50,319 nucleotides of DNA. It comes from Pseudomonadota bacterium (GTDB lineage Bacteria > UBA10199 > 2-02-FULL-44-16 > JAAZCA01). Positions 38,875 through 40,566 of this stretch are shown in pieces. The stretch's first letter is position 1. The number at the start of each line of letters is the position of its first letter. The notes beneath the pieces are model-generated. The model had not been told where the DNA came from, searched no databases, and saw only the letters and a list, made by a program, of their open reading frames with translations. The stretch is from contig JAZDOG010000012.1 in assembly GCA_043798915.1 (NCBI GenBank), forward strand, positions 1 to 50,319. Reading direction: 5' to 3'. A program made the position numbers and the translations under genes.

Positions 38875-40566
38875 TCAGTTTGCGAGAGCGGTTTGGAGAG
38901 GTGACCGAGTGGCCGAAGGTGCACGCCTGGAGAGCGTGTGTGCCGCAAGGCACCGCGGGTTCGAATCCCGCCCTCTCCGCCAAGTGGAACGGATGGCCTG
39001 TAATTGGGTCATCCGTTTCGTATTTTCAGGGGTTTGCGCCGGTTCTAACCCTTTGTATTCGGCCTCAAGGGCAGGATAGGCATTTTCTATCGGAACAAGC
39101 CACGCATTGGCGTGGACAGTGAGTTTGCCGTCTTTTATCGTCGGGTTCGAACCCATGGCCATGAGTATCTGCTTCTTTGTTTCGAGATCGCCCGTAAGGA
39201 AGGATTCGCGGGCATGTGTGGCAAAATTGAAGGCCCTTTCTGCGACCTCAACCCAATGTTCGGCCCGATCTTCTGTCTCTCTCAAATTTCTCTTTAGGTG
39301 GCGTATCTCTGTTTCCAGTTGATCGCGTTTCTCTTTGAACTGCGCATCCGTGAGTAAATCATTCAGACGCATTTCAAGGAGCCGATCCAATTTCTTCTGG
39401 GTCTCTACAACGGTTCTATGCTGGGATTCGTATGTTGTTTCACGTTCATCAATTTCTTTTGAGTTCTGTTCTCTCAAGACCTCCAATGCCCAATCCCTGA
39501 ACTCAGGGAGGATTGTAAATCTTTCGATCTCTTCCGCAATCTGCTTTTCCAACAGATCGTCACGAATGACTTTTTTCTGTGAGCAATCGTAATCCATTCT
39601 TTTGCGGGTGCAATGGTAGTAGGTGTACTCCTTGACCTCGCCACTGCATTTGATGAGTTTATGCTTGGTCTCTGCCGTATAGAGACATCCGCATTCACCG
39701 CACCTGATAAGCCCAGTAAAAGCAAACGTGTGTTTCTTGGGGCGGGGATTTCCCTTCCTTCCCAAGAGAAACTGGACGCGATTGAACTCTGAGAGCGTTA
39801 TCATTGGCTTATGTTTGCCTTCATATTCCTGTCCGCCGTATCTGATAATTCCGGCATAGAAGGGATTTGTGAAGGTTCGATAAATGCCGCTTCTTGATAA
39901 TTCCTTGCCTCCAAGTTTCTTTGTCTTCCTCGTTCTGAAACCCCATTCGTTATTTGCAATCTCCAATATCTGCGGCGGTGATTTGGTTCCTGTCAGCATA
40001 ATATCCCACATCTTGCGAATGAGAGAGAATCTTTCAGGGTCTTCAATAATCGTCTTCTCGTCCTTGTCGTTCAGATATCCGAGGGGAGCAACATTGGGCT
40101 GCCAGCCTTTTGCAAGCTTGCTATCAACACCTCGTTTGACGTTCTTGCGCAGTTCCAGAATGTATTGATTCGCCATCCCGCTTTCAACACTGAAGAGGAG
40201 GACGTTGTCGTCAGGAAGATATTCTCTTTCGATGGTCTGAATTGATTGAATTGTCCCCTGTTGCAATAGCCAGCCGATCTGACCGCTATCAACGGGATTA
40301 CGAGAGAGGCGATTGATCTGCCAACAGAGGATGCCGTTGGCCTCGCTGTTTTCTAGCCTTTGAATCATCTCTGAAAATATGGGGCGGTTATTTGGCTTCT
40401 TTGCAGACTTTGCCTCTGTCATTATGTCGATGATGTTGAGCTTTCTTTCCTTCGCAATTTGTTTCAGGCGGTTTATCTGATCTTCGATTGACTGGACCTG
40501 GCGGTCCTCACTCTCTGACGATTTGCGGGCATACAAAATGTATCTCGTTTTTCCTGCTTCATTCAT
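38875..40566 (-). CDS. Large serine recombinase (integrase); 3' end overlaps tRNA-Ser antisense
   Basis: Catalytic YARKSSES, NRLSRN, recombinase domain NPFYAG..GKHKPMI, Zn ribbon GLIRCGECG..YYHC, coiled coil. Confidence 0.93.
   Translation of the reverse strand: MNEAGKTRYILYARKSSESEDRQVQSIEDQINRLKQIAKERKLNIIDIMTEAKSAKKPNNRPIFSEMIQRLENSEANGILCWQINRLSRNPVDSGQIGWLLQQGTIQSIQTIEREYLPDDNVLLFSVESGMANQYILELRKNVKRGVDSKLAKGWQPNVAPLGYLNDKDEKTIIEDPERFSLIRKMWDIMLTGTKSPPQILEIANNEWGFRTRKTKKLGGKELSRSGIYRTFTNPFYAGIIRYGGQEYEGKHKPMITLSEFNRVQFLLGRKGNPRPKKHTFAFTGLIRCGECGCLYTAETKHKLIKCSGEVKEYTYYHCTRKRMDYDCSQKKVIRDDLLEKQIAEEIERFTILPEFRDWALEVLREQNSKEIDERETTYESQHRTVVETQKKLDRLLEMRLNDLLTDAQFKEKRDQLETEIRHLKRNLRETEDRAEHWVEVAERAFNFATHARESFLTGDLETKKQILMAMGSNPTIKDGKLTVHANAWLVPIENAYPALEAEYKGLEPAQTPENTKRMTQLQAIRSTWRRGRDSNPRCLAAHTLSRRAPSATRSPLQTALAN
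38895..38982 (+). tRNA. tRNA-Ser(GGA) with encoded CCA; probable integration site
   Basis: GGAGAGG/CCTCTCC-G-CCA, CACGC-CTGGAGA-GCGTG anticodon arm, long variable arm, GGTTCGAATCC. Confidence 0.96.

Follow-up and report, generated by a model that had tools for sequence, protein, structure and literature searches.

The DNA analysed here, a stretch of 50,319 nt that we refer to as the window, is an entire contig (C103) of the 105-contig assembly GCA_043798915.1 of a Pseudomonadota bacterium, and it carries the gene (int) of a large serine recombinase (LSR) whose open reading frame (ORF) continues through the antisense strand of a tRNA-Ser(GGA) gene. We consider it quite probable that this enzyme inserted its own island at the 3' end of that tRNA gene, with the core of the attachment site attP lying inside the ORF at Trp529, and that integration exchanges the C-terminal tail of the integrase. 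Serine integrases are the main tools for the insertion of large DNA, and their natural targets have been thought to exclude tRNA genes (PMC4383910). Related enzymes occur in candidate-phyla bacteria, Deltaproteobacteria, Planctomycetes and other groups, and the acceptor/CCA ends of many tRNAs are used with almost no sequence in common. A C-terminus that depends on the recombination state also offers a directly testable idea of how a serine integrase could have its direction or stability coupled to the product of the recombination that it carries out.

An integrase frame in register with tRNA genes

The integrase frame reads antisense through the tRNA gene, which lies on the plus strand at 38895..38982, so that residues 529-557 are encoded by antisense tRNA; residues 558-563 and the stop codon are encoded by host DNA 5' of the tRNA, and in this integrated form the protein ends in ...STWRRGRDSNPRCLAAHTLSRRAPSATRSPLQTALAN. 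An earlier reading of the DNA from its letters alone (the sequence-only reading) had described an LSR frame without a stop through the whole of tRNA-Ser(GGA) into host DNA, and the ORF, ARAGORN and Pfam results bear this out. Pfam places a Resolvase domain at residues 10-154 (1.8e-18), a Recombinase domain at 180-267 and a Zn_ribbon_recom domain at 283-347, and the protein matches PHROG 95 ‘integrase’ at 2.7e-71; the NCBIfam models XisF, CcrB and CcrC match it below their cut-offs (CcrB at 3e-23). An alignment of 50 sequences shows no variation at R14, K15, S16, R61, R86 and R89, and S16 is, by its position, the putative nucleophile. The GC content drops at 39 kb from ~0.60 to 0.44-0.48, the GGA isoacceptor is single among the four tRNA-Ser genes of the assembly, and a scan for promoters and terminators around int stayed at background level. 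One frame reading an 88-nt tRNA open could be explained by chance; the register of the tRNA 3' end with the Trp codon, which is kept throughout the family, goes beyond chance.

A protein database search yielded 6040 proteins at E <= 1e-20 among 8000 candidates scored, a count that does not imply clade membership of all of them. The best 120 relatives share 60-76% identity with the query over 91-99% of its length and are 515-608 aa long, with Deltaproteobacteria, Patescibacteria/Parcubacteria, Caldisericia and Planctomycetes metagenome-assembled genomes among their named sources. Their similarity extends to a conserved ...A-S-V-R-x-R-W, in which the Trp is invariant in the 50-sequence alignment. 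From this Trp onward, 75 of the 120 have W-x4-[GAVDE]-[SL]-N, the peptide expected when CCA, acceptor stem and T-loop are translated in antisense. When 121 proteins were anchored on this Trp, 69 had tRNA-type tails, 37 stopped within 6 codons, 10 had another shared tail and 5 had others; the frame in relatives often ends 2-13 codons past the Trp.

Scanning metagenome contigs with the alignment gave 80 loci, 10 of them without the C-terminus and 70 holding the Trp codon. A standard ARAGORN tRNA lies on the opposite strand with its 3' end at the Trp codon, at an offset of 0, in 40 of these 70 loci, and an intron-bearing tRNA-Asn or tRNA-Thr (intron of 186-260 nt) does so in five more, which makes the offset 0 in 45/45 callable tRNAs. 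At 9/70 loci there was a tRNA-like 3' part that was either truncated where the contig ends or not called, and a tail not derived from a tRNA at 7/70 (L042, L043, L055, L058, L072, L077 and L112); 3/70 were too short for classification. The last six comprise L078 and L079, in which the ORF stops earlier, and L060, L102, L104 and L111, at which a P'-bearing far end is present and which may be secondary sites or tandem remnants; L111 has an additional tail-like piece on the other strand at 21065-20973. The targets are tRNAs for Asn, Gln (2 anticodons), His, Trp, Ser (3 anticodons), Lys, Asp, Glu, Met and Thr, and they cover at least 12 isoacceptor types. Introns of 186-260 nt in the anticodon loop of occupied tRNA-Asn and tRNA-Thr genes were called (aragorn -i) downstream of int at L044, L053, L073, L094, L105 and L122, and they contain a GATATAGTCC-like stretch of a kind typical of group I introns.

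Within the host phylum, a match at E <= 1e-80 was found in 7/93 genomes, including the source genome. Three of the relatives are close (74-76% identity), two of them lying at tRNA-Ser genes (gga and tga) and the third at a tRNA-Thr with an intron; a relative of 34% identity also overlaps tRNA-Ser(gga), and one of 35% identity ends in a ...V-D-E-V-R-T... tail. A single-protein scan of genome contigs gave only 2 distant matches and one of viral contigs 20 loci at 31-38% identity, and the plasmid and phage collections held no match at E <= 1e-30. One consequence for annotation is that the ORFs of such integrases are called with arbitrary ends.

C-terminal tails of the integrated and excised forms

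The tails that are not derived from tRNAs have W-[LR]-x-x-V-[ND]-[DN]-V-R-T ... I-Y-I-P-D-L in common. Using them as tblastn queries, we found that 13 integrated loci hold the same coding sequence as a separate piece, on the strand of int and 6.6-11.2 kb upstream of the Trp codon, at what would be attR, the end of the island far from the tRNA and attL. The genome of the window has its own piece at C104:352..278, on a separate contig, which reads R-A-T-V-D-D-V-R-T-I-I-Q-Q-T-Q-G-Y-I-F-I-P-K-L-A-A-stop, and a second piece at C10:1975..1907. The latter belongs to a second element, whose int paralogue (C20:97008-98121, 61% identical, its N-terminus cut by the contig end) adjoins tRNA-Gln(ctg) in the same geometry and ends in ...RSAWLRD and a stop, with the Trp on CCA; the other end of this element, where the tail piece is found, is at C10:1-1978 beside tRNA-His. 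The first residue of each piece fits its target, R on C104 for the tRNA-Ser copy and L on C10 for the tRNA-Gln copy. These pieces and the att pairs described below uphold the proposal of the sequence-only reading that attP lies inside the 3' end of the integrase gene and that the two forms carry unlike tails, the tail of the circular form now being readable from C104.

Several other loci are consistent with this exchange. Two proteins, P0062/P0063, and a third, P0066, have bodies identical at 529/530 positions and unlike tails right after W-L. The L112 contig has the C-terminal part of the gene for a 425-aa island protein at its start and the N-terminal part at its end, with an intact, tail-bearing (attP-form) int and then cargo, which makes its gene order a circular permutation of the integrated order. 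At L077 the end of int runs into its own P' sequence (19/19 nt), after which the contig stops. A search with the L112 tail region returned 3 proteins among 10 candidates. On these comparisons, the integrated and excised forms are predicted to encode different C-termini.

We compared 21 tails of 20-37 codons each, 15 from attR ends and 6 from intact genes. The motif [IVM]-[YHFK]-[IV]-P-[DNKQ]-[LV] is present in 19 of them, and in 18 of these 19 it falls at tail residues 19-24; the frame of the orphan pieces at attR is open in 15/15. In 17 tails, the six motif codons have an entropy of 0.33 at positions 1-2 and 1.25 at position 3, and the V-R codons GTT AGA in the P' box of attP are nearly invariable at all positions. 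The early part of the tail is thus constrained as DNA and the later part as protein, and the codon pattern indicates that the excised tail is under protein-level selection. The integrated tails vary by tRNA, from 2 to >60 residues, and the tRNA-encoded tail would be a by-product, the conserved and presumably functional tail being that of the excised form. The sequence-only reading had seen a degron-like signal in the ..ALAN end of the integrated tail; we found no support for this, as integrated tails vary with the tRNA and are predicted to be disordered, and only the excised tail is conserved. At L058, a 182-nt inverted repeat (5985-6166 and 9695-9876, 94% complementary) copies the 3' end of int together with the core of attP and the tail. 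Between its two arms lie 3.5 kb of cargo, a second serine recombinase gene follows at 10069-11541, and the arrangement may be an invertible or exchangeable cassette.

Structure prediction with AlphaFold2 (AF2) gave the integrated protein of the window a mean predicted local distance difference test (pLDDT) score of 79.8. It has long helices at residues 355-401 and 407-458, its last helix stops at 529, and residues 529-563 have a pLDDT <50, so the integrated tail is predicted to be disordered. The model of the tail-bearing L112 integrase (39-sequence alignment, mean pLDDT 76.7) has a helix at 523-549 that passes through the Trp (W536), in a block of pLDDT 76-85, and then an extended I-Y-I-P-D-L stretch at ~68; Foldseek matched this model to full-length serine integrase structures, the best being 9y66_A at 1.6e-20. 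Co-folding the L112 body (1-535) with its tail (536-565) scored 0.54 against 0.00 for the best control, with at least 91% contact agreement between runs and a partner pLDDT of at least 68, and speaks weakly for an association. The mark used was reached by 116/157 solved complexes and 2/215 mismatched pairs, and at scores of 0.60 or below by only 18/157 solved complexes, plus both passing mismatches. A pass is partly to be expected and the result adds little, because both chains come from a single protein that was divided inside a predicted helix.

The same anatomy would hold if the swap of tails were a neutral by-product of the place of attP, with either tail, or none, working alike. The Pfam domains and the coiled coil of the integrase all end before Trp529, the length of the integrated tail varies with the tRNA, and the same trivial reading was offered for dsiB, a gene discussed below, by McMurdie et al. 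(PMC3146451). However, the tail peptide is conserved beyond the DNA site while its third codon positions are free, the tail stays open at all 15 attR ends examined, among integrases with bodies only ~60% identical, and AF2 makes the tail a continuation of the last helix. We regard neutrality as rather unlikely and a role of the tail in integration or its control as more likely. We infer that integrase produced from the circle depends on the complete tail, or is tuned by it, in integration or in its control, so that integration itself changes the enzyme.

A bolder idea, which we offer tentatively and with considerable doubt, is that the exchange is a built-in state sensor, in which direction is set by the DNA that carries the end of the gene and not only by a directionality factor. 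The helix and I-Y-I-P-D-L peptide of the circle's enzyme would set the geometry of the zinc domain and coiled coil for attP x attB, and the chromosomal enzyme, without the peptide, would be switched, either off or to competence for attL x attR.

The tail could also be a stability signal, the excised form being degraded through an ssrA-like ..LAA end that the integrated form escapes. In phage BPs, immunity depends on integration, which frees the product from a degradation signal, and excised tails end in K-L-A-A for the element of the window, Q-L-A-A at L105 and K-A-A at L055. Only 3/21 tails end in A-A, however, and the conserved part is internal while the C-terminal residues vary, which makes this improbable.

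Crossover at the CCA end of the tRNA

In what follows, positions are numbered in the integrase sense with the T of TGG, the Trp codon, as index 0, so that indices 2..5 are tRNA nt 74, 73, 72 and 71. The ten attL/attR pairs that we aligned have a common stretch of 4-10 nt with indices 2..5 inside every one, and in the C103/C104 pair the common block is only GCGG, indices 2..5. The island-derived end of the tRNA is therefore at most its last 3-6 nt, CCA included. The sequence-only reading had the island supplying the 3' part of the tRNA, which in the usual sense is not supported, since only these terminal bases would come from the island.

Agreement of attR with the tRNA ends by index 8. Strand exchange in the T-loop, for which the island would have to bring along a copy of tRNA sequence, is thereby excluded, as it is by the common blocks. 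A version in which the crossover lies deep in the tRNA, with a carried 3' copy, a displaced fragment at the far end and a functional ..ALAN tail, would have the usual geometry of tRNA islands and would resemble the Dehalococcoides ssrA islands, with their 20-bp repeat and T-loop insertion point (PMC3146451). Copies of the tRNA 3' part of at least 12 nt are absent from the rest of the window, and in the assembly they occur only in other tRNA genes; attR matches the tRNA over 4-10 nt only; and integrated tails are unconserved and predicted to be disordered. We think this version very improbable. The displaced fragment that the sequence-only reading expected beyond 50319 was accordingly not found, the far end lying on the separate contig C104. 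That another enzyme placed the island and the serine recombinase is a mere passenger beside the tRNA is hardly credible. Nothing was found in its favour, the codon-exact register is kept in all 45 calls, which come from many phyla and represent at least 12 isoacceptor types, and no tyrosine recombinase was found among the 11 ORFs scanned with Pfam and PHROGs.

The terminal bases themselves appear to come from the island. Index 1 is unlike in 6 of the 10 pairs, G in attL and T in attR, so native genes read C-A-A and not C-C-A. An encoded CCA end is present in only 10/47 tRNA genes of the assembly, both occupied genes included. In most of the genes N73-C leads into an A-run, and the remaining three for tRNA-Ser have ...G-C and then A-runs. 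From the native C-A-A and the rarity of genomic CCA, it follows that the island donates the terminal bases, CCA included. A tRNA-Ser(cga) gene at 35265-35352, 3.5 kb upstream of the occupied tRNA, is unoccupied and has no encoded CCA. Among 30 relatives of the host the hcp/tRNA neighbourhood is not kept, so no empty site could be read.

Within the common block, the crossover dinucleotide is most likely at indices 4,5 (tRNA nt 72/71), judging from the symmetry and spacing of the sites. This dinucleotide is palindromic in 3/59 attL, 0/14 attR and 1/6 natural attP sites, and in attL the dinucleotides at indices 2,3 and 3,4 are palindromic in 52/59 and 14/59, respectively. Dyad matches in attP number 161/400 at the centre 4,5 against 133, 102, 98 and 69 at neighbouring centres. 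Indices 2,3 and 3,4 were considered as alternatives, and the palindromes and the attP dyad symmetry no more than disfavour them. With the centre at 4,5, the P' box GTTAGAAC falls at half-site positions 17-24 and the T-loop box ATTCGAAC at 12-19; the zinc-domain motif of LI integrase lies at 16-24 in attP and 11-19 in attB (Rutherford et al. 2013, PMC3783163). Independently of the centre, GTTAGAAC is at indices 21-28 and ATTCGAAC at indices 16-23, that is, 5 bp nearer the core in attB, on the P'/B' side. These enzymes appear to read the conserved T-loop box, which suggests broad-host landing sites in every genome; if this is true, the box as an attB motif would let one enzyme clade hop among tRNA genes and phyla. 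The trailer arms of attB are unconserved, and the family also lends itself to studying how an integrase distinguishes attB from attP if one of the two attB halves is not conserved.

The mechanism that we propose would run as follows. The island's own LSR would insert it at the 3' end of tRNA-Ser(GGA), using an attP in which the final conserved residues ahead of Trp529 are encoded by the P arm, and the initial ~9 residues of the tail that follows, 25-36 aa in all, by the P' arm. In attB, the half that is tRNA would present the universal T-loop box as a zinc-domain motif at attB spacing, with the P' box 5 bp further out in attP, and strands would be exchanged within tRNA nt 71-74. The island would donate only terminal bases, including the CCA absent from the native gene, and would leave the mature tRNA unchanged. 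Upon integration the ORF would lose its own tail, the coding piece of which would stay at the far end (C104:352..278), and would read antisense tRNA into a disordered tail without a function of its own. The excised form would encode the full protein, its last helix continuing past the Trp and followed by the conserved I-[YF]-I-P-[DK]-L peptide.

Several points weigh against this account of insertion and tail exchange. The rebuilt attB has no dyad symmetry at any centre (0.22-0.26), the GTTAGAAC box was not seen in the P arm, and the B arm has no matching box. The join between the window and C104 crosses a repeat and is absent from the assembly. At L060, L102, L104 and L111 there is neither a tRNA nor an attP-type tail, and two of the 21 tails (L043 and L058) are without the I-Y-I-P-D-L motif. 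The attP-type, circular contigs have no terminal overlap. Of the sequencing runs listed, none contained >16% of the sampled words and none was of RNA. Finally, every LSR domain is already complete ahead of Trp529, so catalysis may not need the tail.

The island and its place among known systems

From 38978/38981 to its end at 50319, the window holds the left portion of a mobile island in its integrated state, at least 11.5 kb long and with a cargo of defence type (Table 1). Its backbone consists of the 75-aa, 425-aa and 198-aa proteins and int; the three proteins are found in 39, 25 and 26 related loci, respectively, always upstream of int and on the same strand. The 198-aa protein has no match in Pfam, PHROG or NCBIfam, and the 215-aa ORF has no family match. 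The N6-methylase at 44747-46995 is made up of two overlapping ORFs (217 aa + 532 aa) and may be a frameshifted gene or a two-part enzyme. Pfam found no resolvase domain in the 10 other island ORFs scanned.

Table 1. Features of the integrase locus, its attachment sites and the island in the window.
Feature	Position	Strand	Evidence
LSR ORF, integrated form, 563 aa	38875..40566	-	Resolvase, Recombinase, Zn_ribbon_recom (Pfam); PHROG 95
tRNA-Ser(GGA), occupied target gene, attL side	38895..38982	+	ARAGORN
Island-encoded integrase body, residues 1-528, family-conserved	38983..40566	-	Database relatives
Trp529 codon TGG, antisense of tRNA CCA	38980..38982	-	Invariant in 50-sequence alignment
Integrated-form tail, residues 530-563: antisense tRNA plus 18 nt of host DNA	38878..38979	-	
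Common block of attL/attR, GCGG in the integrase sense (tRNA nt 71-74), must hold the 2-bp crossover	38977..38980	.	C103/C104 pair
T-loop box GGTTCGAATCC in the B' half-site; proposed attB zinc-domain motif	38958..38968	+	Consensus of 59 attL
P half-site of attP, also encoding ...A-I-R-S-T before Trp529	38983..39010	-	Consensus ...TCtgTTCGT.CAC.. upstream of TGG; dyad partner of P'
Cys-rich 198-aa protein, conserved, next to int on its upstream side; candidate for an accessory or directionality factor	40589..41185	-	Neighbour in 26 related loci
425-aa backbone protein, conserved, without an assigned family	41274..42551	-	57-78% identity in 25 related loci
75-aa backbone protein, conserved; candidate directionality factor	42514..42741	-	39 related loci
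SpoVG-like protein	42701..43123	-	Pfam PF04026, 1.9e-09
Cargo: 215-aa unknown, AbiEii-like, split Eco57I/MmeI-type N6-methylase, T5orf172 + ResIII helicase, 204-aa unknown	43243..50210	+	Pfam, PHROGs
End of a repeated element (probable insertion sequence), interrupts the island and breaks the contig	50179..50319	.	Repeat of C104, C80

The far end of the island lies on C104. The first 141 nt of C104 are the exact reverse complement of the last 141 positions of the window (50179-50319), and 139 nt of this repeat recur at C80:28199-28337 beside a 470-aa DUF772 transposase ORF. This repeat, common to all three places, points to a copy of an insertion sequence (IS) inside the island that broke the assembly, and we infer that the window end joins C104 across it. 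Beyond the tail piece on C104 there is a hairpin with flanking A and T runs, followed by host genes at host GC. Elsewhere in the window, the GC content falls to 0.38-0.50 at 24000-26000 against ~0.62 around it, which may mark another foreign insert.

According to Hudson et al. 2015 (PMC4383910), no serine integrase using tRNA genes was known, in agreement with the remark of the sequence-only reading that such targeting is unusual for these enzymes. In the literature searched we found no description of a serine integrase clade at tRNA 3' ends or of a crossover at the CCA end. Among the tycheposons of Prochlorococcus, which resemble the present island as small, cargo-carrying and possibly replicative tRNA-gene islands, 27/937 have a large serine recombinase (Hackl et al., bioRxiv 10.1101/2020.12.28.424599); we found no mention there of serine-type att sites or of an overlap with the tRNA. 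Islander-type islands of tyrosine integrases likewise use the tRNA 3' end, have int beside the tRNA and leave the tRNA intact (PMC4383910), but the recombinase family differs and here there is no displaced tRNA fragment. Island finders that seek displaced tRNA fragments will miss islands of the present kind.

With the integrases of Listeria A118/LI, Bxb1 and PhiC31, the present enzyme has in common the order of domains, the fold and short att sites with a small common core; those integrases use protein-gene or intergenic targets and have attP outside the ORF (PMC3783163). The 5-bp outward shift of the zinc-domain motif from attB to attP that is described for LI integrase is seen here on the P'/B' side, with no matching box in the P or B arms. 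In the present family, by contrast with those enzymes, attP falls within the ORF, one half of attB is tRNA and the other an unconserved trailer, and the end of the protein would depend on the state of the island. Integration also alters the coding of an element's own gene in SSV1, where attP splits the tyrosine integrase in two, and in phage BPs, where integration truncates the repressor; in the present family only the last 25-36 codons of the integrase would be exchanged.

The closest precedent, a partial one, is DsiB, the integrase of the tmRNA (ssrA) islands of Dehalococcoides (McMurdie et al. 2011, PMC3146451). It too is an LSR beside attL at the 3' end of a tRNA-like gene, its ORF always overlaps attL and leaves the island without having met a stop, copies differ from one another in the overlapping portion, and its islands likewise carry cargo and measure about 10-12 kb (PMC3146451). 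McMurdie et al. suggested that the DsiB gene is perhaps fully functional only on the circular form (PMC3146451). Both enzymes are CcrB-like, ours below the NCBIfam cut-off. The differences are that DsiB targets a tmRNA, where it inserts in the T-loop and leaves a direct repeat of 20 bp (PMC3146451), whereas here the targets are tRNAs and the common stretch is 4-10 nt at nt 71-76, and that DsiB is accompanied by a small serine recombinase, DsiA (PMC3146451), whereas the 198-aa neighbour here has no resolvase domain. Beyond what is described for DsiB, the alternative tail has been located here and is conserved.

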